Notes under the pieces: generated by a model
What the model was told of the DNA's origin: nothing
Seen by the model: the letters and a program-made list of their open reading frames with translations, nothing else
Databases searched by the model: none
Shown here: piece by piece, positions 10,542 through 46,431 of the stretch
Layout: every line of letters begins with the position of its first letter
Numbering within the stretch: position 1 is the first letter of the stretch
Made by a program: the position numbers and the translations under genes
Source: a phage
Assembly: GCA_021146965.1 (NCBI GenBank)
Contig: GCA_021146965.1_4847.1
DNA length: 46,431 nt
Direction: 5' to 3' (one strand)

Positions 10542-12809
10542 ATGGCTACCACACCAACCAATAAACCAATTCCGTCAGAAGACCCGCGCGACCTGAAGTT
10601 TAATGCTGGTAAAATTGACGAAGTTGTCAACTCTGACAATCACTACTACACCGATCGCTTTGGTCATCGCCGCTTTACAATTGCAGGATTCCAACACACC
10701 GCAGAAGAAGCAATTCGTAACTATGGCTACATCACAATGGATAGCTTCGAGGATGGCGCGACGCTGACGTTACCGAATCAGGTTTTGCGCTATGAAGCTA
10801 CTGGAGAATATTACCGCTGGGATGGTGAATTCCCTAAAACAGTCGCTTCTGGTTCAGCTCCTGCATCCGCTGGCGGTGTTGGAATTGGGAAATGGTTGAG
10901 TGTTGGTGATGCAGCCCTGCGCAGCCAGATTTCAGACCCGGATGGTGCGTCCAGTTACCCTGAATTGCAGATGGCAAGATGGCGTGATGAGGGTGATGTT
11001 CGAGGCTGGGGTGCTAAAGGGGATGGTGTAACGGATAGTACGGAGAATATAGCTGCTTCACTAAATTCTCAAAAAGCTGTCGTAGCATCAGACGGTGTAT
11101 TCTCTAGTTCTGGTATTAATAGTAATTACTGTAACTTAGACGGTAGAGGCAGTGGTGTACTAAGTCACCGTTCAAGTACAGGTAACTACTTAGTATTTAA
11201 CAATCTACGCTCAGGTCGCTTAAGTAATATTACGGTAGAAAGTAATAAGGCGACCGATACCACTCAAGGGAAGCAGGTATCTCTTGCTGGTGGTAGTGAT
11301 GTTACTATAAGTGATGTTAATTTCTCAAACGTTAAGGGCATTGGTTTCAGTTTAATCACATACCCTAATAATGCACCCTCTGATGGGCTTATGATTAAAG
11401 GCATTCGAGGTAGCTACTCCGGCTATGCTACTAATAAGGCGGCTGGATGCATACTTGCTGATTCCTCGGTTAACTCCCTCATAAATAACGTCATTGCTAA
11501 GAACTACCCTCAGTTCGGGGCTGTAGAACTGAAAGGTACAGCCAGTTATAACATAGTCAGCAATGTTATAGGGGCAGACTGCCAGCATGTAACTTACAAC
11601 GGTACAGAAGGGTCAATAGCTCCCTCTAACAACCTTATCAATGGGGTAGTGGCTAATAATCCTAAATATGCAGCGGTTGTTGCAGGCAAAGGTAGTGCCA
11701 ACTTAATCTCAGATGTGCTTGTAGATTTCTCAATCTCTGATGCTAGGCAGGCTCACGGTGTTACAGTAGAAGGTTCTGATAACGTCATAAATAATGTGCT
11801 TATGTCAGGATGTGATGGTAATAACTCTTTAGGGCAAGCTCAGACTGCTACAATTGCGCGCTTTATAGGTACAGCTAATAACAACTATGCGTCTGTATTT
11901 CCTAGCTACAGTGCTACAGGTGTTATTACTTTCGAATCAGGTTCTACCCGTAACTTCGTAGAGGTAAAGCATCCGGGAAGGAGAAACGACCTTCTCAGTA
12001 CTGCTAGTGCTATTAGCGGTGCAGATACTATTGACGGCACTAATAATAGCAACGTAGTGCACGCCCCTGCATTAGGGCAGTACATAGGCAGTATGTCCGG
12101 TAGGTTCGAATGGCGGATTAAGTCCATGTCACTTCCGTCAGGCGTTCTTACCTCGGCTGATAAGTACAGAATGCTTGGGGATGGTGCTGTGTCATTAGCT
12201 GTAGGAGGGGGTACTTCTTCTCAAGTTCGCCTATTTACTTCTAATGGTACTTATCGGACAGTATCACTCACCAACGGTAACGTGCGTCTTCCTACCAGTA
12301 GCACAGGTTATTTGCAGTTAGGTTCTGATGCAATGACCCCAGATAGTACTAATACATACGCATTAGGTTCCGCAAGTAGAGCATGGTCTGGCGGTTTTAC
12401 TCAATCAGCATTCACTGTTGTCTCAGATGCTAGGGATAAAACAGAGCCTCTTAATATCTCAGATGCTTTACTGGATGCTTGGTCTGAAGTTGACTTTGTG
12501 CAGTTTCAGTACTTGGACCGAATTGAGGAGAAGGGTGCAGACTCAGCTAGATGGCACTTCGGCATCATCGCTCAGCGAGCTAAGGAGGCATTCGAACGTC
12601 ACGGTATAGATGCACATCGCTATGGCTTCCTGTGCTTCGACAGTTGGGATGATGTATACGAGGAAGATGCCAATGGCTCTCGTAAACTGATTACACCAGC
12701 AGGTTCCCGCTACGGTATTCGTTACGAGGAAGTACTGATATTAGAGGCTGCGTTGATGCGGCGTACTATTAAGCGTATGCAGGAAGCATTAGCTGTTATG
12801 TCTAAGTGA
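10542..12809 (+). CDS. tailspike protein with pectate-lyase-like beta-helix and C-terminal intramolecular chaperone (peptidase S74-type) domain
   Basis: 755 aa; GWGAKGDGVTD motif typical of right-handed beta-helix depolymerases; C-terminal ~130 aa (SDARDKTEPL...WHFGIIAQRAKEAF...YGIRYEEVLILEAALMRR) matches the auto-cleaving chaperone domain of endosialidase/T5 L-shaped fibre type. Confidence 0.8.
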   Translation: MATTPTNKPIPSEDPRDLKFNAGKIDEVVNSDNHYYTDRFGHRRFTIAGFQHTAEEAIRNYGYITMDSFEDGATLTLPNQVLRYEATGEYYRWDGEFPKTVASGSAPASAGGVGIGKWLSVGDAALRSQISDPDGASSYPELQMARWRDEGDVRGWGAKGDGVTDSTENIAASLNSQKAVVASDGVFSSSGINSNYCNLDGRGSGVLSHRSSTGNYLVFNNLRSGRLSNITVESNKATDTTQGKQVSLAGGSDVTISDVNFSNVKGIGFSLITYPNNAPSDGLMIKGIRGSYSGYATNKAAGCILADSSVNSLINNVIAKNYPQFGAVELKGTASYNIVSNVIGADCQHVTYNGTEGSIAPSNNLINGVVANNPKYAAVVAGKGSANLISDVLVDFSISDARQAHGVTVEGSDNVINNVLMSGCDGNNSLGQAQTATIARFIGTANNNYASVFPSYSATGVITFESGSTRNFVEVKHPGRRNDLLSTASAISGADTIDGTNNSNVVHAPALGQYIGSMSGRFEWRIKSMSLPSGVLTSADKYRMLGDGAVSLAVGGGTSSQVRLFTSNGTYRTVSLTNGNVRLPTSSTGYLQLGSDAMTPDSTNTYALGSASRAWSGGFTQSAFTVVSDARDKTEPLNISDALLDAWSEVDFVQFQYLDRIEEKGADSARWHFGIIAQRAKEAFERHGIDAHRYGFLCFDSWDDVYEEDANGSRKLITPAGSRYGIRYEEVLILEAALMRRTIKRMQEALAVMSK

Positions 12810-15428: not shown

Positions 15429-16055
15429 TCACTCTCCGTGGTTACAGAATTCTTTATGCATCTTTTCTCTGAATTTCATCACAGACAACCTCGCTCTCTC
15501 AATATCATTGAATAACCCAAGATGGTATCTTTTCCCGTTAACATCACAGTAAGCATGCCACTTTTTAACCTGTTTTTGCCAATACACACCTTTAACTCCT
15601 GATGTGTTATTTTTTGGTTTTTTAGCGTTATACTGGTTCTGCATATTTGTTGCGATTCTTAAGTTGCAAATCCTGTTATCGTCACGCACACCGTTAATGT
15701 GATCAATTTGACCTTCAGGCCAGAAACCATAATAAATCAACCATACCAAGCGATGCGCGTAGTATCTTTTATTATTTATGCTTATCTCTATGTATCCGTT
15801 ATGTTTTTTCCTGCCAGCGACACTACCCTTTCTTACACCTCCACCCGTCTTATTTCTAATGAAAACCCCTGTTTCATGGTTGTAATTTAAGCTATCCAAA
15901 ACAACATAACGTGGTATTCTTTTTCTTCTTCCTATGGTGTTTGACTCTGCACTTCCCTGAGCAAAATCTTGCTTTTGCAGTTCCGATAAACTCATTTCCA
16001 CAAACCTCGCACTTCTTAACGGTGATAGCCATTTCTTACCCTCTATTGTAATCAT
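15429..16055 (-). CDS. HNH homing endonuclease with AP2 DNA-binding domain (paralog 1 of 4)
   Basis: IDHINGVRDDNRICNLR HNH motif plus AP2-like SGVKGVYWQKQVKKWHAYCDVNGKRYHLGLF; paralogous to 25547..26059, 34748..35260, 36012..36542. Confidence 0.8.
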   Translation of the reverse strand: MITIEGKKWLSPLRSARFVEMSLSELQKQDFAQGSAESNTIGRRKRIPRYVVLDSLNYNHETGVFIRNKTGGGVRKGSVAGRKKHNGYIEISINNKRYYAHRLVWLIYYGFWPEGQIDHINGVRDDNRICNLRIATNMQNQYNAKKPKNNTSGVKGVYWQKQVKKWHAYCDVNGKRYHLGLFNDIERARLSVMKFREKMHKEFCNHGE

Positions 16056-22694: not shown

Positions 22695-22723
22695 TTGACG
22701 TAGAATCACAACTGATGTAGATT
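22695..22723 (+). promoter_or_regulatory. putative rightward early promoter
   Basis: TTGACG (22695-22700) - 17 nt - TAGATT (22718-22723), 30 nt upstream of first rightward ORF. Confidence 0.55.
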
Positions 22724-24326: not shown

Positions 24327-24480
24327 ACAGAAAGTCTGGCAACTCGCAAAGCAGCACGAATTAGACGATTTCATCGAGAAGGTTGCAAAGACATTCCCTG
24401 ACGCGCTTGAAGTCGTTCATGTGCAGACGCGAAATGAAAATGCATGGTGCTACACAAAAAATCATACAAATGGTAGATGA
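24313..24480 (+). CDS. hypothetical protein
   Basis: internal ATG of track ORF 24247..24480; overlaps neighbours as in coupled operon. Confidence 0.3.
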   Translation: MQTTKQKVWQLAKQHELDDFIEKVAKTFPDALEVVHVQTRNENAWCYTKNHTNGR

Positions 24481-24907
24481 AATGAAGCTAACAAAAAAAC
24501 AACGCGAAGAGCTACGCATGAAGTTCGGTGGTCGCTGTGCTTATTGTGGGTGTGAGCTACCCGAGAAAGGTTGGCATGCAGACCATGTTGAACCAGTGCT
24601 ACGTAAATCTGAGCAGTGCATGAAGGCAGCGGCGAAAGGGATTTTCAAGCTGAAGGCAACCGGTGAGCTATATCGACCAGAAGCCGAGCGACTGGAAAAC
24701 CTTTACCCTGCGTGCGCCCCCTGCAATCTGATGAAAACTTCCTATTCCCTGGAAATGTTCAGGAAGCAGGTATCTCTTCAGGTTGCTCGTGGGCGCAAAA
24801 GCAGCATGAATTTCCGCACTGCAGAGCGTTTCGGTCTTATCGCCGTGGTGGAGAGACCAGTTGTTTTCTGGTTTGAGAAATACCAGGAAGAGAACGAAAA
24901 AAAATAA
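24470..24907 (+). CDS. HNH endonuclease (classical zinc-finger HNH, packaging-associated type)
   Basis: CAYCGCEL...WHADHVEPV...NLYPACAPCNLMK; located just upstream of terminase genes as for cos-phage HNH proteins; start uncertain (24434/24470). Confidence 0.7.
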   Translation: MVDEMKLTKKQREELRMKFGGRCAYCGCELPEKGWHADHVEPVLRKSEQCMKAAAKGIFKLKATGELYRPEAERLENLYPACAPCNLMKTSYSLEMFRKQVSLQVARGRKSSMNFRTAERFGLIAVVERPVVFWFEKYQEENEKK

Positions 24908-30998: not shown

Positions 30999-31643
30999 TT
31001 AATCATCCAGTTTCACGCCTGGAATTTTTCCTACTGCAATGGCTTCATAAATTAGCTTGGCCTCGTCCTCGCGCCTGTAATCTTGAGCTGCCATTTCTAA
31101 CACCGCGCAGATAGACTCAAGTACAGCCTCATGCTTCTTTTCTGCTTCTGTGCGTAGTGGTTTTAGGCTTTCCGGTACGAAGCAGCATGACCGACCAGCA
31201 CCACCTTCATCCCAATAGCAAACAGCCACATCGTTTCCGTCCGTTGTTGTCTTGTGCGCTACAACTTCCATTTCAGTGCCAGCATCAGGAATCCAGTCAT
31301 TGCAGTATCCTAACTTTGGATTAAAGAAGAATTCTACTTTTGCACCAACTGGCGGCAGGCCTTCTCCATTCCATGTCTGCTTTTGCAATGCTGCTAGCGC
31401 GGATTCATACAAGTCGCGAGTTATCATACAATAATCCGTGGCTACGCTGACATAGCGACCGGGTATGGGGATTGCCACGGTGTACTGAAATGGCACATCA
31501 AAACCATCGCTATATCCCTTTGGGAAACAAAAAGCAATTGTGATACTGTCACCATTGAAATCACCAACTCGACACCTCTCAGCACCATCAGGCCACCCAC
31601 CACGCTTAGGTAATTCTTGAACTAACAGGTCGATAAGTTTCAT
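30999..31643 (-). CDS. hypothetical protein
   Basis: 214-aa ORF on opposite strand to flanking morphogenesis and lysis genes; no recognised motif. Confidence 0.5.
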   Translation of the reverse strand: MKLIDLLVQELPKRGGWPDGAERCRVGDFNGDSITIAFCFPKGYSDGFDVPFQYTVAIPIPGRYVSVATDYCMITRDLYESALAALQKQTWNGEGLPPVGAKVEFFFNPKLGYCNDWIPDAGTEMEVVAHKTTTDGNDVAVCYWDEGGAGRSCCFVPESLKPLRTEAEKKHEAVLESICAVLEMAAQDYRREDEAKLIYEAIAVGKIPGVKLDD

Positions 31644-31942
31644 TTTGTTTCTCCCAATGCTTTATTAACCGCGGCACGTGCATTATCCAGAGCGCGACGC
31701 TTGCTTGATGTTGTCCAGCATTTTCCGGAGTGGTCGTCGTAGATTTCCAGAAGTTGCTGGAGTGCTGATAACAGGTCAGGAGATGCCGCTATTAGCCTTG
31801 CGTTATGCCATTGCTCGGTTTTATCACCGTTATATGTTGGAGTGAATGCAACCTCGACACCAATATCCGAGATAACATCTGGCGCGTTATCATCACCAAC
31901 AACAACTTCCCATTTTCCATGCGTACCTTTAAATTCTTTCAC
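31640..31942 (-). CDS. small protein, paralog of 45127..45468 (Ead/Ea22-like?)
   Basis: shares KEFKGT.G.W N-terminus and AA(S/A)P(D/E)LL.ALQ..L / NKALG C-terminal motifs with 45127..45468; probable GTG start 31942 preceded by GAGGT; 5' ends of the two paralogs share 19 identical nt. Confidence 0.5.
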   Translation of the reverse strand: MKEFKGTHGKWEVVVGDDNAPDVISDIGVEVAFTPTYNGDKTEQWHNARLIAASPDLLSALQQLLEIYDDHSGKCWTTSSKRRALDNARAAVNKALGETK

Positions 31943-31950
31943 ATCCAACC

Positions 31951-32094
31951 TCACTTAATATACTCAACAATCTCAACTTCACGCATCTGCACCAGGCCAA
32001 ATGGTGCAACCACCTTACCGCACGGACGGATTTTGATTTGCTCAAGGTTGAACACTCCGCAGCGTCCGTTTTCTTTGAATTTGACCATTACCAT
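31951..32094 (-). CDS. small hypothetical protein (47 aa)
   Basis: ATG ORF MVMVKFKENGRCGVFNLEQIKIRPCGK...; below track cut-off. Confidence 0.3.
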   Translation of the reverse strand: MVMVKFKENGRCGVFNLEQIKIRPCGKVVAPFGLVQMREVEIVEYIK

Positions 32095-32267: not shown

Positions 32268-32353
32268 CACTTGATGTAGATACTATGCACCACCAACCAA
32301 TCTACGTCAACACCATTGTGATAGAATTAATCATTATTTGAACTGGAGGCAGA
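32268..32353. promoter_or_regulatory. divergent promoter/operator region with inverted motif pair
   Basis: TTGATGTAGAT (32271-32281) and inverted CAATCTACGTCAACA (32298-32312) between divergent operons; GGAGG RBS at 32345-32349. Confidence 0.45.
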
Positions 32354-35820: not shown

Positions 35821-36015
35821 ATGGCGCATGACGAACTGTACGAAGAATCGTTAATCCAGAGGTTGAATGAAGTTGAGCGCACTCGCGAATGGCTGGAGTG
35901 CGAGTTACGAGAAGTGCGCAACCGCCTGCAACGCAAGCGCAGTCAGCAAAGAGATGTCATCGACTGGTCTGGGGGTACACCTAAATTTAACAATCTGGGA
36001 GAATGGTTGAAATGA
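35821..36015 (+). CDS. hypothetical coiled-coil protein
   Basis: 64-aa ORF. Confidence 0.4.
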   Translation: MAHDELYEESLIQRLNEVERTREWLECELREVRNRLQRKRSQQRDVIDWSGGTPKFNNLGEWLK

Positions 36016-36542
36016 GCAACATTAGTAAGGAAAGCATTTTAAAGTTCCTCCAGCATGATGAAAATACAGGAAACTTTCTATGGATTGATAATTTCTCAAG
36101 AAAATCAAAGAAAGGGAAGGTGGCTGGAGGTATTACATCGCATGGGTATTGGAGAATTCAACTCCCCATCGGGAGGTTTTACGCACACAGAATGGCGTGG
36201 ATTGTTTGCAATGGAGATATACCAAACGGATATGAGATTGATCACATAAATGGGAACAAGAAAGATAATCGCATCAGCAACCTAAGATTGGTCACAAGAG
36301 GTCAAAATGTTATGAATGTAGGCGTGAAAAACAATAATACAAGCGGAGTTAAGGATGTTGTTTGGGACTCTTCGCGAGAAAGGTGGAGGGTTCAAATTAC
36401 AGCCAATGGCAAGCATTATTATGGAGGTAGATTCTCGTCAATAACACAAGCAAAAGAGGAGAGGAACAGGCTCATAAAGATGGTTCACGGGAAATTTTTG
36501 AATACAAAAGGTGAGCAATATGACACTACTAATGAACGATGA
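36012..36542 (+). CDS. HNH homing endonuclease with AP2 domain (paralog 4 of 4)
   Basis: IDHINGNKKDNRISNLRLV plus AP2-like SGVKDVVWDSSRERWRVQITANGKHYYGGRF; ATG 36012 with GGGAGA RBS. Confidence 0.8.
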   Translation: MSNISKESILKFLQHDENTGNFLWIDNFSRKSKKGKVAGGITSHGYWRIQLPIGRFYAHRMAWIVCNGDIPNGYEIDHINGNKKDNRISNLRLVTRGQNVMNVGVKNNNTSGVKDVVWDSSRERWRVQITANGKHYYGGRFSSITQAKEERNRLIKMVHGKFLNTKGEQYDTTNER

Positions 36543-36756
36543 GAAATTACTTGAATGCCCGTTTTGTGGTTGTGATGACGTAAGTGTTATTGATGACGGC
36601 GAATGGTTGCACGTTGAGTGCGGAGATTGTTTTTGCCGCACTGACTCGTATTGCTGCGCATCCACGGCAATGAAGAAATGGAACACAAGAGGTGGACACC
36701 TCTACACTTCCGACGACTTCAATCAGGCAGCAGAGGAGCGTGATTATGGACTATAA
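36520..36756 (+). CDS. Lar-family restriction alleviation protein (zinc ribbon)
   Basis: LECPFCGCDD...HVECGDCFCRT...AMKKWNTR pattern matches the Lar restriction-alleviation family as recalled; start 36520 or 36532. Confidence 0.5.
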   Translation: MTLLMNDEKLLECPFCGCDDVSVIDDGEWLHVECGDCFCRTDSYCCASTAMKKWNTRGGHLYTSDDFNQAAEERDYGL

Positions 36757-37234
36757 ATCACAAATCATGCGCGTGATTATGAATCACCCCGGAGCAACGC
36801 GCGCATACATTGAGAAGCATTGCGGAGGTAAGCATTCAAGCACCACAACGCATCGCTTACATGAGATGCTTGCTCTTGGATTCATTCGTCGCGAGAAGTC
36901 AGTGATTCGCGGCGGCAAGTGGCAGTATAAATATTTCATCTCTGATGATGCAGCCGGTATTGATGATGCTATTAAGTGCCATTTGCTTGATAACGCTGGC
37001 GCGGAAGTGAAAGAAATCAGTACCACCACTGGCATTGATTATCGCATCGTGAAAAGCCGCATCCGCATTATGTTTCATAACGGTGATGTGACGCGAAGCT
37101 ATGACCACCACAAGAAGCTGTGGCGTTATTCATGGAAGGAGAAGGAAGTCAATGTAAGCAATCTATTTAATTCACTTCTTCGCAGCGTAAGGGGTCAGCA
37201 TGGGAAAAGCCAAACGCAAGAAGCAAGAGTATGA
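36746..37234 (+). CDS. hypothetical protein with two tandem winged-helix-like repeats
   Basis: internal ATG with GAGGAG RBS; two similar ~55-aa repeats; C-terminal end uncertain. Confidence 0.4.
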   Translation: MDYKSQIMRVIMNHPGATRAYIEKHCGGKHSSTTTHRLHEMLALGFIRREKSVIRGGKWQYKYFISDDAAGIDDAIKCHLLDNAGAEVKEISTTTGIDYRIVKSRIRIMFHNGDVTRSYDHHKKLWRYSWKEKEVNVSNLFNSLLRSVRGQHGKSQTQEARV

Positions 37235-40452: not shown

Positions 40453-40453
<1 letters not shown>

Positions 40454-41526
40454 TGGAAAAGATTATTTTTACCAAAGACTTGGTAGCCAACTCCGCAGTG
40501 GTGGCTGACCAGTGGAAACATCTCACCATCGACCGCAAGGTGTTCTGCAATGCAGAAGCTGAACTGGCGAAAACATACGGTGTTAACGCCACCGCGCTGG
40601 TAACGAAAGATTACTGGCGCGACGTGGATAACGTCACCACCCGTGTTTTCCGCAACGAAGCTGGCCAGGACATGATGGCTGACCTGATGGGTATCGCGGC
40701 AAACATTAACATTGGTAAGACTGTGGCAATCAGCCGCATTGCTTCCGATGCTGGCAAGGTAGTCCGCACTCTGTCTGGTCAGGAGCCGGAAGACTTGGAT
40801 AAAACTCGCTACGATTACACTGGCGACGTGATTCCAATCTTCAAAACTGGCTACAGCCGCGAATGGCGCGAACTGCTGGGTATGCAGTCTGAAGGTTTTG
40901 ACCCCCTGCTGGACGATCAGGCTAACGTCACCTTTAACCTACGTTCCGACATGGCGCAGTATCTGCTGACCGGCGACCAGACTCTGAACGTGAACGGCGT
41001 TTACACTGGCTACGGTATCACCAACCACCCGAACACCATTCAGGTCAACCTGAACGTTTCCGATGGCGGCCTGAATATCGACCTGCAAACCGCAACGCCA
41101 GATGAAATCGTGAAATTCTTCAATCAGGATTTCCAGGCTATTCTGGATGCGCAGAACGTATTTGAGCAGGTGACTCTGTGGGTTTCCCCGGCAGTGCGTC
41201 GCAGTTTCATGCGTCCGTATTCTAATGCGGCTGGCTTCAAAGGCGGCACGGTTGAGCAGTACATCACGCAGTTCGGTAATGGTCGCATTGGTAAGATTGG
41301 CACCAACTTCCTGCTGACTGGCAACCATTTCGTTGGTTACGTTCGCAACGACATGTACATCCGTCCGCGTGTTGCTCAGCCTGTCTCCACCTATGCGGCA
41401 GCTCGCACCAACCCGCACGATAACTTTAACTTCCTCGTATGGTCTGCTTTCGGTCTGCAGATTCGCAAGGATGCCGCTGGAAAAAGCCGCGTCTTTAATG
41501 GCTATGGTAGCCAGAAAGCTAAATAA
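40453..41526 (+). CDS. major capsid protein (HK97-fold)
   Basis: 357-aa ORF in canonical position after protease/scaffold and decoration genes, followed by strong terminator; size and composition typical. Confidence 0.65.
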
Positions 41527-41529
41527 TAA

Positions 41530-41556
41530 AAAAGGGGGTTTATCCCCCTTCTTTGT
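41530..41556. terminator. bidirectional rho-independent terminator
   Basis: AAGGGGG-tttat-CCCCCTT hairpin flanked by A-run and T-rich tract, between convergent MCP (+) and 41540..42346 (-). Confidence 0.6.
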
Positions 41557-42346
41557 ATCTAATTTCACCGTAAACCATGTACTGTAACATGTAACAAAAC
41601 TCCCATTCCGTCATATCTGTCCGTAGCCACTTCCTGTTCTTCTTGTAATTGTACTCCGCCAGCTCCGCTTTTAAATTGTGAAGAGCATTAACCAGTTCTG
41701 GATATACGAGGTTATTCTTAACAAACCAGTTGACAGATAAAATATGGTCAATATGCCAATTATTGCGGTCATCAAAACTCATCCATGGAAGCATGGTTGA
41801 TTTTATATGCTTAATGAAATCATCCTTTGAGTACCCGAGAACATCATCTACTGTTCTATCAAGCGCAATGTCAGATACTCTCATATCAAGCCGCTCAAGC
41901 ATTTTTCTTAGGAACACGTGGTGTGGGTGCTTCTTTTGCCATTGCCTGACATTATCCAGAGCCTTTTTATTGCCTTTCTCTGAGTAGTACCATCTGCGAT
42001 AAGCTTCCCTTTTCTTTTGTAAAAACTCCTCCTTTTTCTCTGGATTCTCGTTAAGCCTTTGCATCTTCCTTTTGTTGTACTCCTGTTGTGATTGTTTTCT
42101 TTTCTTTTTGTACTCGCTGTTATCCTTGTTTTTCTGCCACTCCTTTTTTCTGTACTCACTTTCCTTGCGTTTGCGCTCCTCTGTTGTTCTCTGCTTCCTT
42201 GTTCTTTCGTATACGCAATGCTTGCATCCGCCTGATGCTGTAAAAAACACAGTTCCACCACATACAGAGCATGGAATCCATTCACACACAAATTGCTTCA
42301 GTCCAGCAACCCTTGCTTCTTGCGCGGCTTCTTTTCTTGTTTTCAT
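41540..42346 (-). CDS. zinc-ribbon protein with Lys/Glu-rich low-complexity region and C-terminal HNH-like motif
   Basis: N-terminal CEWIPCSVCGG...CKHC zinc ribbon; ~100-aa K/R/E-rich segment; C-terminal NWHIDHILSVN...NALHNL reminiscent of HNH core; AGGAG RBS. Confidence 0.5.
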   Translation of the reverse strand: MKTRKEAAQEARVAGLKQFVCEWIPCSVCGGTVFFTASGGCKHCVYERTRKQRTTEERKRKESEYRKKEWQKNKDNSEYKKKRKQSQQEYNKRKMQRLNENPEKKEEFLQKKREAYRRWYYSEKGNKKALDNVRQWQKKHPHHVFLRKMLERLDMRVSDIALDRTVDDVLGYSKDDFIKHIKSTMLPWMSFDDRNNWHIDHILSVNWFVKNNLVYPELVNALHNLKAELAEYNYKKNRKWLRTDMTEWEFCYMLQYMVYGEIRYKEGG

Positions 42347-42432
42347 AAAGTCACTCCTAATTTGGTTTTATATTACCACGAGTGTAACTAGTGTGCTACA
42401 ATTAACCAGCATTAACTCATGAGGATATTTAA

Positions 42433-42630
42433 ATGGCTAAATACGAAGTGATTGCGCGAGGCATCTTTGTCAAAGAAAAAGGCAAGATTCGTGAGTTGCA
42501 GCTTGGCGAGGTGATTACCGAACCTGCTGATCATCTGATGTCAAAGCTGCGCGTTATGCCAGAACTGGAAAAATCTTTCGAAGTCGCAACCCCGCAAGAA
42601 AAGACGACAAAGAAAAAGAAAGCAGAGTAA
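42433..42630 (+). CDS. hypothetical protein
   Basis: 65-aa ORF with GAGGA RBS followed by terminator. Confidence 0.45.
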   Translation: MAKYEVIARGIFVKEKGKIRELQLGEVITEPADHLMSKLRVMPELEKSFEVATPQEKTTKKKKAE

Positions 42631-42635
42631 ACTGA

Positions 42636-42660
42636 ACCCGCATAATGCGGGTTTTTTATT
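42636..42660 (+). terminator. rho-independent terminator
   Basis: ACCCGCAT-a-ATGCGGGT hairpin followed by TTTTTTATT. Confidence 0.65.
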
Positions 42661-42670
42661 GGGGGTTTCT

Positions 42671-43489
42671 ATGGCTGTCAGGTACGAAATAAACACAACT
42701 CCGGCTGACGGAGAGGTTTTGCTTAGCGAAACCATGTCTGCGGACTGGTCAGCATTACAGGTGCAGATTGTGCCGCTAAATTCTTCCGGTGGCTATGTGC
42801 CATTAACAAGCGGGTCTGTTTACGTAATGGTATCGCCGTTTGCGTCTGGTGATTTCTGGATTGACGTCAACAATAATAATTATTATGGCGTAGCGCTGCG
42901 GCTGAAGGTGATCAAGTCCCAAATACCTGCTGGCATTGCATCTCTGAAAGTCCTTGTATGGCGAGCAGCTACATCAGTGCCATCAAGTCAGGTTGTGGCA
43001 CAGTCCTATGCAGAGTTTGCTAACAAGCAAGGGAAGTTATTCACTGCGTCGCGCAGAGTAACTGATGTCGCTGGCAGCTCAAACCTTGACAGCATATTTA
43101 TCACCGGAACAAAGCAGGTGATATTCAACCAGCGCATTATTGGTTACACGGGGAAAGGTGTTGTTGCATCAATCTATCGCGGCGCAGTTGCCACTGGCGG
43201 TACGACGGCAGAGATTAACAACCCAAACGACATAACGCCACAAGCAGCTACGGCGCAGTTAATTACTGGCGCTACCGTGACAAACATCGGGCAGCTGACG
43301 GTGGCGGCAACATACAGTGAGGGTAACGCATCGAATCAGGGGCAGGGTAACTCGCAGGCGAAGCTCGGCGAGCAGATTATCATGGCACCGAATACGACGT
43401 ACTTACTTCGCATAACATCACTAGATACTGCGGCGCAGAATATCAATGCGTACGTTTCATGGTTTGAGGATGATACTTATCTGGCGTGA
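42671..43489 (+). CDS. hypothetical protein (possible structural/decoration protein)
   Basis: ATG 42671 (track starts at TTG 42659); Ser/Thr/Gly/Ala-rich beta-like composition. Confidence 0.45.
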   Translation: MAVRYEINTTPADGEVLLSETMSADWSALQVQIVPLNSSGGYVPLTSGSVYVMVSPFASGDFWIDVNNNNYYGVALRLKVIKSQIPAGIASLKVLVWRAATSVPSSQVVAQSYAEFANKQGKLFTASRRVTDVAGSSNLDSIFITGTKQVIFNQRIIGYTGKGVVASIYRGAVATGGTTAEINNPNDITPQAATAQLITGATVTNIGQLTVAATYSEGNASNQGQGNSQAKLGEQIIMAPNTTYLLRITSLDTAAQNINAYVSWFEDDTYLA

Positions 43490-43495
43490 TAAAAG

Positions 43496-43522
43496 AAAAG
43501 CCCCGCAAGGGGCTTTTTATTG
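43496..43522. terminator. bidirectional rho-independent terminator
   Basis: AAAAGCCCCG-caa-GGGGCTTTTT hairpin between convergent genes. Confidence 0.65.
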
Positions 43523-44059
43523 CTACAGACGCATAGGCATAACAACAATCTTCGCAGTCTCTCCAGATGGCGCACTAAGACAGCAAACAGCGGCATCTGT
43601 GTTTCCATTTAGTTCAAATTTAACGCAACAGAATCTTGGGTTAAACAGCTTTGCCACCTTCTCGATATCAACAAGGTAGCCAGCATTGAAGCCAATTTTC
43701 TCTGCCGGCAAGGTCTGATTCGGAATGACGCGATCAATATCAGGGAATCGACCATCAATCTCTTCGCAGATACCTGCTCCAACCATCGCGCCGGCTTCAT
43801 CATGATACGTTGCAATTTTCGACTTTGTATCAATGATGGCGTGCTCATAACGCTTTGTTGGTGACTTGCCAATCTTGATGATTACATTTTCTGTCAGCTT
43901 ATTGTCATGGTTGCCACCAATAAATGCGCGATGACCGTCAGTTGAGGCAATGCGACCATCTTGCATAAAGCAAATACCATTCAGGTAGTAGCGCACATCA
44001 TTGCGAGCCTGAAAGATTAATGCTGATTCAAGTAATAATTTGCTGATTTTTAGTTTCAT
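43523..44059 (-). CDS. truncated DnaN (DNA polymerase III beta sliding clamp)-like protein
   Basis: ~178 aa; N-terminal ~115 aa align with E. coli beta clamp domain II (NDVRYYLNG, STDGHRAF, EEIDGRFPDIDRVIP vs QDVRYYLNG, ATDGHRLA, KLVDGRFPDYRRVLP); C-terminal ~60 aa align with the end of domain III and finish with VVMPMRL, identical to the DnaN C-terminus; start at ATG 44059 (AGGTG RBS). Confidence 0.7.
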   Translation of the reverse strand: MKLKISKLLLESALIFQARNDVRYYLNGICFMQDGRIASTDGHRAFIGGNHDNKLTENVIIKIGKSPTKRYEHAIIDTKSKIATYHDEAGAMVGAGICEEIDGRFPDIDRVIPNQTLPAEKIGFNAGYLVDIEKVAKLFNPRFCCVKFELNGNTDAAVCCLSAPSGETAKIVVMPMRL

Positions 44060-44232
44060 CACTTCACCTTAATCATGTGTTGTTTTGCAACCTTCAGGCA
44101 TTCTTCAAAAATGCCACCATTCTTTGCGCTCTGATTGCGCTTGTAATACTGAATTGCCGCATCAATTGCCATCTGGTCGATTTCAGGCAGTTTTGCGCGC
44201 AGCTGTTTTTCGATGAATTGTTCGGCGTTCAT
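44059..44232 (-). CDS. small hypothetical protein (57 aa)
   Basis: ORF MNAEQFIEKQLRAKLPEIDQ...; stop overlaps start of DnaN-like gene; below track cut-off. Confidence 0.4.
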   Translation of the reverse strand: MNAEQFIEKQLRAKLPEIDQMAIDAAIQYYKRNQSAKNGGIFEECLKVAKQHMIKVK

Positions 44233-44317
44233 TTTTCAACCTATTTGCAGTATGGGCACGTTGATTTCGTTCCGCTACCACCATGTCGTGGGCAACATAT
44301 TTTCTCTATTGGTGTCA

Positions 44318-45127
44318 TCACATCTTCTCCAGAATTGCCATAACCTCGTGAATGTCAGCAACAGGAATCTGAATAAATTCCTCATCCTCTGCCACCACAT
44401 GACCAGCAGGGAGAATTACATGGTCAGCTGGCTTCAGTAACTCAATCAGGCGGTCTACTGGCTTAATCTTTTTCGACTTCAGCACTTTGGCTGTGACCTT
44501 ATCCTTGCCTTGCGCCTTCGCTTCTTCGACCGCTTCGTCGATAACTTTTACCGCATCATCTCCATGTTCGCGCGTTACCGCTACGGCATTTGCATAGCTG
44601 ATCTGTCCGGCACTGATTCGCGCTTTTACTTCCGCAGGCACATCACCCAACGACAGGTGCATTTGCACGTCAGATACTGAGCGGCCTACCTTCTTGGCGA
44701 TTTCCTCGTTTGTCCAGCCAAAACCTTTCAGACGCGTGTAAGCCTTTGCGCGTTCAAACGGGTCAAGTTGCTTGCCCTGACTTGATGACACCATGAATGC
44801 GATTTTGTCAGCCTCGTCGCCAGTAAAATCCTTACACTCAATGCGAACGATTGGTGCGCCGCGCTCAATGGCTCGCAATGCGCCGAGGTAGCGATGCTGC
44901 CCATCAAGAATGCGGATACCTTTATCGTCAGGAATAACTGTTAATGCTGGCAATGGCTGACCTGACTCCCAGCACTGCGCGAAATATTCCACATGCTGCT
45001 CATCTGCTTCACGGATGTTGTATCCCGGCTCCAGATAGATTTGCTCTACTGGCACGAGGTAGGTTTTGTTAACAGCGATACCGTTACGCGTTTCTTTGTC
45101 TGAATAGATTTTGCTTAGTGTTTTCAT
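44318..45127 (-). CDS. ParB-like protein (ParB/Srx N-terminal domain plus HTH)
   Basis: ILDGQHRYLGALRAIERGAPIVRI matches ParB/sulfiredoxin-fold core; central TNEEIAKKVGRSVSDVQMHLSL resembles ParB HTH. Confidence 0.6.
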   Translation of the reverse strand: MKTLSKIYSDKETRNGIAVNKTYLVPVEQIYLEPGYNIREADEQHVEYFAQCWESGQPLPALTVIPDDKGIRILDGQHRYLGALRAIERGAPIVRIECKDFTGDEADKIAFMVSSSQGKQLDPFERAKAYTRLKGFGWTNEEIAKKVGRSVSDVQMHLSLGDVPAEVKARISAGQISYANAVAVTREHGDDAVKVIDEAVEEAKAQGKDKVTAKVLKSKKIKPVDRLIELLKPADHVILPAGHVVAEDEEFIQIPVADIHEVMAILEKM

Positions 45128-45468
45128 TATTTCTTTCCTAATGCTTTATTGATAGATTCTTCAGCTAACAGCAATTCATCTGGGTATTGTTCATTCCAGT
45201 TTTGTTTGTATGCCTTGCTAAGCATTTTTTGCAGAGCTTCAAGCAACTCAGGTGCTGCTGCCATTAAATTAAAGTCATGCTCAACACTGCTATCAATCTC
45301 CCAATGCATCCCGTTGTATTTAGCACCCTTGCTAGAGAAGGCAATATTTCTGTCATCGTCGTGGTGACAGCCAGGTGTGTCATCAGTTCGACAAGACGGG
45401 TAAATAGCTGCGCAACCCCCGCGAATGTCTGCGACCCACGGCCCGGGCGTACCTTTAAATTCTTTCAT
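45127..45468 (-). CDS. small protein, paralog of 31640..31942 (Ead/Ea22-like?)
   Basis: MKEFKGTPGPW N-terminus and AAAPELLEALQKML / NKALG C-terminal motifs shared with 31640..31942; start ATG 45468 with GAGGTG RBS. Confidence 0.5.
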   Translation of the reverse strand: MKEFKGTPGPWVADIRGGCAAIYPSCRTDDTPGCHHDDDRNIAFSSKGAKYNGMHWEIDSSVEHDFNLMAAAPELLEALQKMLSKAYKQNWNEQYPDELLLAEESINKALGKK

Positions 45469-45492
45469 TTTCATCACCTCTAATATTTATTG

Positions 45493-45554
45493 TTGTTTCT
45501 ACGTCACTAACTATAAACGCACCACCAATCTACGTCAACAGGAATATGCTAAAA
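45493..45554. promoter_or_regulatory. divergent promoter/operator region with two motif copies
   Basis: TTTCTACGTCA (45497-45507) and CAATCTACGTCAACA (45526-45540); on minus strand these give TTGACG - 17 nt - TATAGT; TAAAAT at 45549-45554 for rightward genes. Confidence 0.45.
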
Positions 45555-45585
45555 TCATGCTAATCAAACAACAGGAGATTTAAAC

Positions 45586-45705
45586 ATGGGTTCAACCAAC
45601 TCACCATCTCGTTCGCGCGCTACTGGCAACACAAAAACTGGCGGCAAAACTGGCGTGGTGAAGCCAAACGGCTCTACCCGTTCACCATCGCGCGGTAAAA
45701 AATAA
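45586..45705 (+). CDS. small basic Ser/Thr/Gly-rich protein (39 aa)
   Basis: ORF MGSTNSPSRSRATGNTKTGGKTGVVKPNGSTRSPSRGKK with AGGAGA RBS; TAATG-coupled to next gene. Confidence 0.35.
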   Translation: MGSTNSPSRSRATGNTKTGGKTGVVKPNGSTRSPSRGKK

Positions 45706-46142
45706 TGTTCGGCGCAGATGTTGCCATCATGATCATGTATGTGCTTGGATTTGCCTGCACGGGCATGGTTGCGTTTCTGGTGTTCATTCCGGCAATGGTG
45801 ATGTCTGTGTATCTTGGATGGGTGCTTGTTGATTCATTTCCCGCCGAATATCTGTATTACCTTGCGCAGTGTATGGTCTGGTTGTTTCCGGCTATTGCGC
45901 TGCGTAAAAGTACAAAGATGGCGCTCTGCGTGCTGACGATGAGCCTTTACGAATGGCTGGTTGCGATAGAGTCATTCGTATGGGAATTTATCACGCCTGT
46001 AGCAACGCCGCTTCATGCGCAGTACGCATTTATTATCGGCATCCATCTGTTCATCCTTTTCATCACTTTTAAATGGGGCGGCGAAATTGGACATTATTCT
46101 TGGCGTGGTTGCCATCGTTTTTTCGCTGATTCAAATCTATAA
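45705..46142 (+). CDS. polytopic membrane protein
   Basis: 145-aa ORF with at least four hydrophobic helices; C-terminal end uncertain because an overlapping frame encodes a TM-plus-basic-tail peptide. Confidence 0.45.
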   Translation: MFGADVAIMIMYVLGFACTGMVAFLVFIPAMVMSVYLGWVLVDSFPAEYLYYLAQCMVWLFPAIALRKSTKMALCVLTMSLYEWLVAIESFVWEFITPVATPLHAQYAFIIGIHLFILFITFKWGGEIGHYSWRGCHRFFADSNL

Positions 46143-46174
46143 GTGCTGGAAACATATTATCAGCGAGACTCGCA

Positions 46175-46431
46175 ATGAACGAAACACTAAGACAGGCCGC
46201 AGAGCAAGTTATAAGCGGGACGACGGGGCAGGTGATTGACAAGGCTGGATATGCCTCCATTGGTACTGGTATTGGACTGAAAGTTGCAGAGCAAACGCCT
46301 GTCACGCAGTCTTATTTTGAGGCTATGATTCCACACAGTCTGACAGAGTTGGCGGCAGTAGCGTCAATCCTCGGCGCCCTGTCTCTGGTAATAAAGAACC
46401 TCTTTGAAATGTGGTGGAAGGTACGGGAGTC
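46175..46431 (+). CDS. holin-like small membrane protein (3' end beyond window)
   Basis: hydrophilic N-terminus, Gly-rich ASIGTGIG segment, TM helix LAAVASILGALSLVI followed by KNLFEMWWKVRE; architecture recalls small phage holins; open to window end. Confidence 0.3.
   Translation, partial: MNETLRQAAEQVISGTTGQVIDKAGYASIGTGIGLKVAEQTPVTQSYFEAMIPHSLTELAAVASILGALSLVIKNLFEMWWKVRE

Follow-up and report, generated by a model that had tools for sequence, protein, structure and literature searches.

A truncated beta clamp that keeps the pocket for clamp-binding motifs, encoded with a ParB-like protein in an accessory operon of a Skatevirus-type phage

The pocket of the bacterial beta clamp (DnaN) is a hub for polymerases, the clamp loader, Hda and mismatch repair, and is a target of antibiotics. 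Several phages act where the clamp meets its clients: the Staphylococcus phages Twort and G1 make clamp inhibitors, and gp8 of phage N4 acts on delta. Over-expression of MuC of phage Mu titrates the clamp, interferes with RIDA, the Hda-dependent inactivation of DnaA, and leads to over-initiation (PMC12867686), which sets a precedent for strong consequences when the binding of clients to the clamp is perturbed. Each of these proteins either contains a clamp-binding motif or targets the clamp itself or the clamp loader. Here we describe an operon in a phage DNA of 46,431 nucleotides (contig GCA_021146965.1_4847.1 of assembly GCA_021146965.1; "the window" below refers to this entire stretch), in which the roles are reversed, in that the pocket itself is contributed by the phage. 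The protein concerned, which we call the mini-clamp, is a shortened beta clamp, and it is the product of a leftward operon that also encodes a protein of the ParB/KorB family. In the searchable literature we found neither a description of a phage-encoded pocket side of the clamp interaction nor a functional or structural study of short phage clamps. The mini-clamp represents a truncated form of a known family, and its mode of action, as yet unexplored, is probably new.

The mini-clamp gene (43523..44059, minus strand) encodes 178 amino acids (aa), which correspond to domain II of the beta clamp followed by the domain-II-proximal half of domain III. In a phmmer search against the PDB (5e-10), residues 8-121 were aligned with residues 136-254 of E. 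coli beta, which represent domain II, and residues 122-179 with beta 316-366, the second half of domain III, ending in VVMPMRL like DnaN. A profile of 134 family members matched beta clamps with an E-value of 1e-31, and also aligned the C-terminal half of the mini-clamp with the first half of domain III, in the manner of a pseudo-repeat. The scores against curated models lie below their cutoffs, with 16.7 bits for DNA_pol3_beta_2 and 14 bits for DNA_pol3_beta_3 (cutoff 27), and 34.8 bits for TIGR00663 (8.6e-9; cutoff 137.65). The AlphaFold2 (AF2) model of the protein has a pLDDT of 97 and a pTM of 0.91, and a Foldseek search with it returned full-length clamps only, with a probability of 1.0, a query-normalised TM-score of ~0.6 and ~20% identity; none of these matches was a solved structure of a short clamp form. 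When set against the E. coli clamp (1MMI/2POL), the phage protein is alike in homology, fold, domain II, the C-terminal half of domain III and the pocket, but it has 178 residues in place of 366 and lacks domain I, residues ~255-315 and, in the model, helix alpha2.

The family has been labelled inconsistently, as 'RusA-like Holliday junction resolvase' (PHROG 3007), 'DNA polymerase', 'DNA polymerase III beta subunit' and, once, 'major head protein', while earlier annotators had used 'DNA Pol III b subunit fragment' (Bcep781 gp15) and 'possible moron' (SO-1 gp7). The sole support for regarding the 178-aa protein as a RusA-like resolvase is the label itself, as carried by RefSeq and PHROG 3007. 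No match to Pfam RusA (PF05866) was obtained, and the sequence, profile and fold matches are all to beta clamps, so that we consider this identity refuted and give it virtually no credence. The RefSeq label is a spreading error; a true RusA gene (PF05866) adjoins the mini-clamp in a lambdoid contig (L002), which may explain how the label spread.

To delineate the functional surfaces, the residues of subsites I and II of the pocket for clamp-binding motifs and those of the dimer interface were taken from a review (PMC11139829). Sixteen of the 17 mappable pocket residues are identical to those of E. coli beta (R152, L155, T172, G174, H175, R176, P242, R246, V247, N320, Y323, V360, M362, P363, M364 and R365), and the remaining one, L177, is replaced by Ala. 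The near-invariant positions of the 134-member family, in mini-clamp numbering, are D22, R24, Y26, L27, G29, T41, G43, H44, P107, Y129, M175 and P176. Nine of these 12 most conserved positions belong to the pocket, and the pocket differs strongly in conservation from the rest of the protein (Mann-Whitney p = 5e-8). A preliminary description of this DNA had proposed a DnaN-like mimic of the clamp cleft, which holds both at the level of individual residues and across the 134 sequences.

The interface through which the canonical clamp dimerizes is missing from the protein. The interface regions with no counterpart in the alignment are domain I, with I78 and F106, and beta ~255-315, with I272, L273, E298 and E304; given that both halves of the head-to-tail interface are absent, a canonical ring cannot form. 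Furthermore, helix alpha2 of domain II is predicted to be a coil at residues 65-73 in the AF2 model, and the family consensus in this segment reads G-x-x-P. A genuine processivity clamp could nevertheless be envisaged as a DNA-encircling ring of another kind, for example a D2 tetramer of 1.5-domain protomers with six domains in all. Many records do annotate a Pol III beta subunit, and the internal two-fold pseudo-symmetry of each clamp domain might allow half-domains to pair. A parallel is offered by beta*, a short UV-inducible product of E. coli dnaN that was reportedly described by the Livneh laboratory in the 1990s, 1996 included, as starting near residue 135 and was proposed to form a ring. 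Its N-terminal boundary is that of the phage protein, but beta* retains all of domains II and III, whereas the mini-clamp lacks half of domain III. With both halves of the dimer interface gone, a DNA-facing helix turned into coil across the family and a gene that is dispensable (see below), we regard such a ring as very improbable.

The mini-clamp family is broad, with 1614 cluster representatives at E <= 1e-3; among the best 150, most full-length members have 170-215 aa. It is represented in 274 phage records, which include phages of Enterobacteria, Vibrio, Burkholderia, Pseudomonas and others. We examined the gene neighbourhoods in 15 independent lineages, counting the Kagunavirus Schulenburg and the related SaI_NFG_5579 as one. 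The gene forms a lone opposite-strand unit inside the head genes in Schulenburg/SaI_NFG_5579, SO-1 and Bcep781, lies in the nin region between RusA and NinX in the lambdoid contig mentioned above, and follows helicase and primase genes in Kosakonia phage Kc237. In five of the 15 lineages a DNA methyltransferase is encoded at most two genes away, namely in Skatevirus (C5), L019 (C5), L004/5 (Dam), Vibrio phage PVP-XSN (Dam) and Pseudomonas phage D14E (C5), and in a sixth, the Dhillonvirus 'rolling', an Nmad5 protein is encoded directly upstream of the mini-clamp. The distant Pseudomonas phage vB_PaeS-D14E combines a ParB-like protein of the same subfamily as that of the window (hhalign 99.7%), a mini-clamp and a C5 methyltransferase in a single co-directional cluster. 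This cluster (L029 1-4856) comprises the ParB-like protein, a LuxR-type regulator, a 224-aa mini-clamp, the C5 methyltransferase and an N-deoxyribosyltransferase-like gene, and, judging from its gene content, it may be a DNA-modification module built from the same parts. A search for a small partner gene shared upstream of mini-clamps in other lineages gave a negative answer: in L007 and L019, the neighbouring 57-aa proteins are unrelated.

These links to methyltransferases and to ParB-like genes suggest a coupling role. The mini-clamp might couple modification to replication by tethering methyltransferases, Nmad-type enzymes or the ParB-like protein to the host replisome, so that modification would keep pace with the synthesis of new phage DNA, the phage of the window having lost its methyltransferase. 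The methyltransferases within two genes in five lineages cover three enzyme types, the Nmad5 protein lies directly upstream in 'rolling', and the trio of ParB-like protein, mini-clamp and C5 methyltransferase is found in both Skatevirus and D14E. In eukaryotes, the pocket of the sliding clamp PCNA brings the DNA methyltransferase DNMT1 to new DNA; the recurrent pairing of mini-clamp and methyltransferase would fit this example, purely as an analogy, but the mini-clamp does not sit on DNA as a ring and no motif is seen in the phage methyltransferase. In particular, reading the sequence of the Bas78 enzyme showed no clamp-binding motif. The mini-clamp is equally constrained with and without a methyltransferase, many lineages carry it alone, and the two kinds of gene may simply share the accessory or early region, there being no background rate behind the counts. 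On this evidence we consider a role centred on such coupling to be unlikely. A functional link between ParB-like protein and clamp, as the preliminary description had it, finds some support in the D14E trio; it is not obligatory, given that many lineages have a mini-clamp without any ParB-like gene and that the two genes are separable in the relative considered next. A partnership between them is plausible.

Information on the need for these genes comes from Salmonella phage seszw, a relative for which genome-reduced derivatives obtained by CiPGr have been deposited (PMC9825161); in these genomes a gene was scored as present at >=99% identity. The DNA of the ParB-like gene is present in 70 seszw-type records and that of the mini-clamp in 47. 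Across the 70 records the ParB-like gene has lost at most its last ~15 codons, which is how an essential or near-essential gene would behave. Clones seszw_150S and seszw_300L, the second of which has the smallest genome reported in that study (PMC9825161), have retained gene 18 (ParB-like) and gene 19 but are devoid of gene 16 (mini-clamp) and gene 17. The mini-clamp is dispensable for plaque formation by seszw on the laboratory host. It should be noted that these mutants carry many other deletions, so that no phenotype can be assigned to the loss of the mini-clamp alone. As the mini-clamp could be lost from genomes that all retained the ParB-like gene, the pairing of the two is not obligatory. 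The genes of the operon are under strong purifying selection, and the ratio of non-synonymous to synonymous divergence (dN/dS) of the mini-clamp is 0.07-0.12.

The replication genes of the window encode an SSB, an AAA_24/Sak4-like protein, an exonuclease, two helicases and a T7-type primase. Among the genes of the window there is no recognisable DNA polymerase, and hence the phage must use the host Pol III. The explanation we favour, with a confidence that stops just short of even, is an accessory operon with a ParB-like DNA-binding protein and a pocket-only mini-clamp that acts on motif-bearing proteins. The operon would be a conserved unit of accessory DNA metabolism, expressed on its own from a promoter with GACGTAGA boxes that would drive five coupled ORFs (open reading frames) as far as a terminator. 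The ParB/KorB-family protein would bind DNA through its helix-turn-helix (HTH) and would most likely be a DNA-bound regulator or organiser, rather than a partition protein of the plasmid type. The mini-clamp, a fragment that forms no ring, would most likely be a soluble pocket for clamp-binding motifs that operates off DNA, this being the simplest function that fits what selection preserves. Host proteins with such motifs that could be docked or sequestered include Pol III alpha, epsilon and delta, Hda, MutS/MutL and the translesion polymerases, with the outcome that these clients would be either diverted from the host clamp or brought to the phage DNA, or to modification and ParB machinery. 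Here we infer the binding of peptides, the identity of the clients and the benefit to the phage.

Several observations weigh against this explanation. Any role in replication would be auxiliary, given the dispensability of the gene in seszw, and a strong general decoy would harm a phage that itself depends on Pol III; both points speak against replication being strongly blocked across the board. Some enrichment of the pocket is to be expected, because true clamps are likewise most conserved there and the members of the family were gathered by homology. The pseudo-repeat alignment of the C-terminal half leaves the exact boundaries of the deletion uncertain. The adjacency to methyltransferases comes from a small sample chosen after the pattern had been noticed, with no background rate, and the operon of the window is without a methyltransferase, yet its mini-clamp is as constrained as the others. 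Finally, the phage's own replication proteins yielded no clamp-binding motif, and the only motif match in the operon, QMHLSL in the ParB-like protein, was rejected as an internal ligand, as it lies in a structural helix of ParB and is not conserved. A more general proposition would be that phages of many lineages encode a hitherto uncharacterised class of proteins, namely ring-less, pocket-only fragments of the beta clamp that bind motifs of host or phage proteins off DNA, thereby titrating or redirecting clients such as delta, Hda, MutL and Pol III, and maybe coupling methyltransferases or ParB-like proteins to replication; we consider this possible, though somewhat doubtful.

ParB, Spo0J, Noc and KorB are CTP-dependent DNA clamps, in which an N-terminal ParB/Srx domain is followed by HTH_ParB. 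The gene at 44318..45127 (minus strand; 269 aa) encodes a protein of the ParB/KorB family with the same order of domains, belonging to a variant subfamily with the motifs NIR, DG[QH]HR and SSQG. Its identification as a ParB-type DNA-binding protein, already made in the preliminary description, passes domain searches, with Pfam scores above the cutoffs for both HTH_ParB (44 bits; cutoff 22.6) and KorB (26.3 bits; cutoff 22.3). The protein belongs to phrog_1033 (3e-91) and matches Spo0J (1vz0; 4e-13, from residue 40), Myxococcus xanthus ParB, Noc and KorB (8qa8). The N-terminal ParB/Srx domain is present with altered CTPase motifs, in that GERR of box II is replaced by DGQHR and ENLQRE of box III by SSSQGK. 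These replacements are typical of the subfamily as a whole, in the forms DG[QH]HR and (S/T)SSQGK, and none of 39 diverse members departs from N37, R39, G76, H78 and R79. The constellation of residues characterizes a distinct subfamily on sequence grounds, and the altered motifs could be compatible with the binding of some nucleotide. The phage protein further differs from its characterized relatives in that neither a ParA partner nor a parS-like palindrome was found, and in that the phage is virulent: no ParA or KorA partner was detected among the other products of the operon with Pfam, PHROGs and NCBIfam, the rest of the genome having been scanned only in part, and no repeated palindrome was found in the genome besides terminators. 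Local repeats in the region are at chance level only. The dN/dS of the gene is 0.01-0.02. A P2-like phage carries a homologue, and so do lambdoid prophages, in which the gene is located in early or replication regions. A Chimaeribacter prophage (L015) with such a homologue also encodes a DNA_pol3_theta homologue (11603-11845), that is, a phage copy of a replisome subunit.

The operon is preceded by a sigma-70-type promoter, TTGACG-17 nt-TATAGT (45510..45538, minus strand), which matches the consensus at 10 of 12 positions and is the only minus-strand site of this type in 42300-46431. Two direct copies of the 8-mer GACGTAGA, at 45529-45536 and 45498-45505 on the minus strand, flank the -10 box and constitute a candidate operator. 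The promoter is invariant in Bas78, ST1UNAM and seszw although the first gene behind it differs, and so are both boxes; the control region as a whole is almost invariant in these phages, while the adjoining coding DNA is ~91% identical. The genome contains four sibling promoters that have TGTTGACGTAGATTG in common, at 22695 (+), 32310 (-), 35523 (+) and 45538 (-). The degenerate form of the box, GAYGTAGA, occurs 12 times in the genome against 1.6 expected, a number reached in none of 100 shuffles, and is paired at each of the four sibling promoters in direct or inverted orientation. From their sequences, the four sites look like a co-regulated set of promoters with a candidate operator.

Two candidate regulators for these boxes are encoded in the genome, the ParB-like protein and a MarR-like protein (36692-37234). 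The ParB-like protein might be a KorB-like transcription regulator that acts on GAYGTAGA boxes at its own and three sibling promoters to time expression, with the mini-clamp as an unrelated passenger. It has KorB and HTH_ParB domains and resembles KorB 8qa8, several records annotate a transcriptional regulator, the boxes are over-represented and paired at the four promoters, and the gene is kept in all the reduced genomes. The boxes, however, are not palindromic, unlike the known ParB and KorB sites; one of them overlaps the -35 hexamer, so that duplication of the promoter could explain the repeat, and the MarR-like protein, itself encoded behind one of the sibling promoters, is an equally good candidate. 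Overall, we regard this possibility as rather unlikely; it is compatible with the explanation favoured above for the mini-clamp.

Downstream, the operon is bounded by a bidirectional intrinsic terminator, AAAAGCCCC-GCAA-GGGGCTTTT (43496..43517, both strands), whose hairpin has predicted energies of -14.1 and -17.8 kcal/mol on the two strands (z -3.2 and -4.0) with U-tracts on both sides. No internal minus-strand promoter or terminator was found in the sequence of the operon, which makes a single transcript plausible. The minus-strand ORFs as listed span 45127-45477, 44318-45127, 44059-44232 and 43523-44062. Based on homologue alignments and the spacing to ribosome-binding sites, the real start of the first gene is most likely the ATG at 45468 (113 aa), and that of the mini-clamp the ATG at 44059 (178 aa). 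The start and stop overlaps can be read directly as TAATG at 45127, TGATG at 44318 and TGATG at 44059. The distance from the ParB-like gene to the gene for a 57-aa protein is 85 nt, and this interval contains a further ORF of 25 codons (44241..44318, minus strand). The four minus-strand genes named in the preliminary description are thus all present, but the true number of ORFs is five, and its count of three overlapping junctions out of four is true only if the unnamed 25-aa ORF is included. Its other claims on the layout, namely the minus-strand promoter, the terminator, the self-contained nature of the accessory operon and the position of these leftward genes among structural genes, are borne out. 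The signals, and their conservation across relatives, are consistent with one transcription unit. The flanking genes encode capsid proteins upstream (major capsid protein, 40453-41526) and head-tail and tail proteins downstream, the latter starting at the beginning of the window. A unit on the opposite strand that brings its own promoter and terminator into the structural genes recalls phage 'morons', the ea genes of P22 and the nin genes of lambda; in keeping with this, a relative has a P22 EaC homologue in its first gene position, and the lambdoid mini-clamp homologue lies between RusA and NinX. The present case differs from these in being an operon of five ORFs with a ParB-like core gene that behaves as essential or nearly so.

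Comparison of relatives reveals two cassette slots whose contents differ, one occupied by the first gene and the other following the ParB-like gene. In the window, the first slot holds a gene (45127..45468, minus strand; 113 aa) of phrog_1273/PF27050, a family without assigned function; the homologues are placed in PF27050 by precomputed Pfam assignments. Its AF2 model has a pLDDT of 94, and the fold matches are limited to uncharacterised phage proteins in BFVD, with no match in a fold search against the PDB. The Ead-like identity given to this protein in the preliminary description had to be abandoned: there is no Pfam Ead_Ea22 match at E <= 1, and hhalign of the 60-sequence family against P22 EaD gave a probability of 0.3%. 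A paralogue with 30% identity (31640-31954, minus strand; 104 aa; phrog_1273) is encoded in a short leftward operon behind the sibling promoter at 32310, and the promoter sequence common to the two operons could allow cassettes to be exchanged by recombination. The first slot contains a P22 EaC homologue (70% identity) in ST1UNAM and, in seszw, a 92-aa acidic protein labelled 'anti-restriction' in RefSeq.

In the second slot, which separates the ParB-like gene from the 57-aa gene, Bas78 and ST1UNAM have a C5 DNA methyltransferase, AB4P2 has an HNH endonuclease, according to the annotation listed under the match, and the window and seszw have the 25-aa ORF. The last of these (MTPIEKICCPRHGGSGTKSTCPYCK) is putatively coding, has a CCxxH...CxxC pattern reminiscent of a Zn-ribbon, and is start-coupled to the stop codon of the ParB-like gene. 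The peptide is identical in the window and seszw, with one synonymous change in 78 nt, which is far less divergence than the dS of ~0.4 of the neighbouring genes. The segment might encode a genuine micro-protein that binds Zn, act as a regulatory RNA element or have been exchanged recently. The 57-aa protein (44059..44232, minus strand; phrog_4439) belongs to a family without assigned function and its gene is translationally coupled to the mini-clamp; it has a dN/dS of 0.06-0.18 and is deleted in most of the genome-reduced mutants of seszw, and hence is dispensable.

The contents of the two slots bear on the proposal, made in the preliminary description, that the operon is mainly a module for anti-defence or host takeover, with the mini-clamp or the ParB-like protein neutralising host immunity. 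Accessory genes of the 'ea'-region type in the first slot (the EaC homologue and the 92-aa protein with the anti-restriction label), methyltransferases in the second, a Lar-like gene near the mini-clamp of Vibrio phage K248 and the dispensability of the mini-clamp on a laboratory host would all fit such a function. However, PADLOC returned no matches, the BASEL isolates of Skatevirus show marked sensitivity to restriction-modification (RM) systems and Old, and the ParB-like gene, never lost in the 70 reduced genomes and with a dN/dS of 0.01, is unlike a fast-evolving counter-defence gene. To our knowledge, no defence system relies on clamp-binding motifs. Taken together, a main role in anti-defence appears decidedly unlikely.

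The window represents essentially the complete genome of a small, virulent siphophage from the Skatevirus cluster, a type of phage with E. coli and Salmonella as hosts. The closest records are the Escherichia phages 6947 and HC6, with ~96% identity across 90% of the first 25 kb, followed by ST1UNAM and the BASEL phages Bas77-80. The base composition of the operon region is unremarkable as a sign of recent insertion. Other variable elements are found in the vicinity and elsewhere in the genome. A 276-aa ORF (42659-43489, plus strand; phrog_5335), situated between a small post-capsid gene and the terminator, is present in ST1UNAM, HC6 and C1 and has no counterpart in Bas78, and thus is another variable insert beside the operon. 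Four ORFs of the HNH/endonuclease VII type resemble homing endonucleases (15429-16055, minus strand; 24383-24907, plus strand; 36003-36542, plus strand; 41540-42346, minus strand), one of which lies immediately upstream of the region studied here, on the strand opposite to the capsid genes. On the other side of the operon promoter, the rightward genes open with a 39-aa ORF (45586-45705, plus strand) that is very basic and rich in Ser, Thr and Gly (MGSTNSPSRSRATGNTKTGGKTGVVKPNGSTRSPSRGKK); no rightward sigma-70-like promoter was found in the 108-bp intergenic region.

For the phages concerned, one consequence of this analysis is the correction of a misannotation, that of 'RusA-like Holliday junction resolvase', across RefSeq phage records. 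The ParB-like neighbour represents a distinct, highly constrained subfamily that is probably important to Skatevirus-type phages, and a testable link emerges between mini-clamps, ParB-like proteins and DNA methyltransferases. If the favoured explanation is true, a natural, widespread and stably folded protein of 178 aa with the pocket in isolation would provide a minimal scaffold for the study of pocket ligands and for screening, and the mini-clamp would serve as a probe of which clamp clients matter during infection. It would also reveal a novel means by which phages manipulate their hosts.

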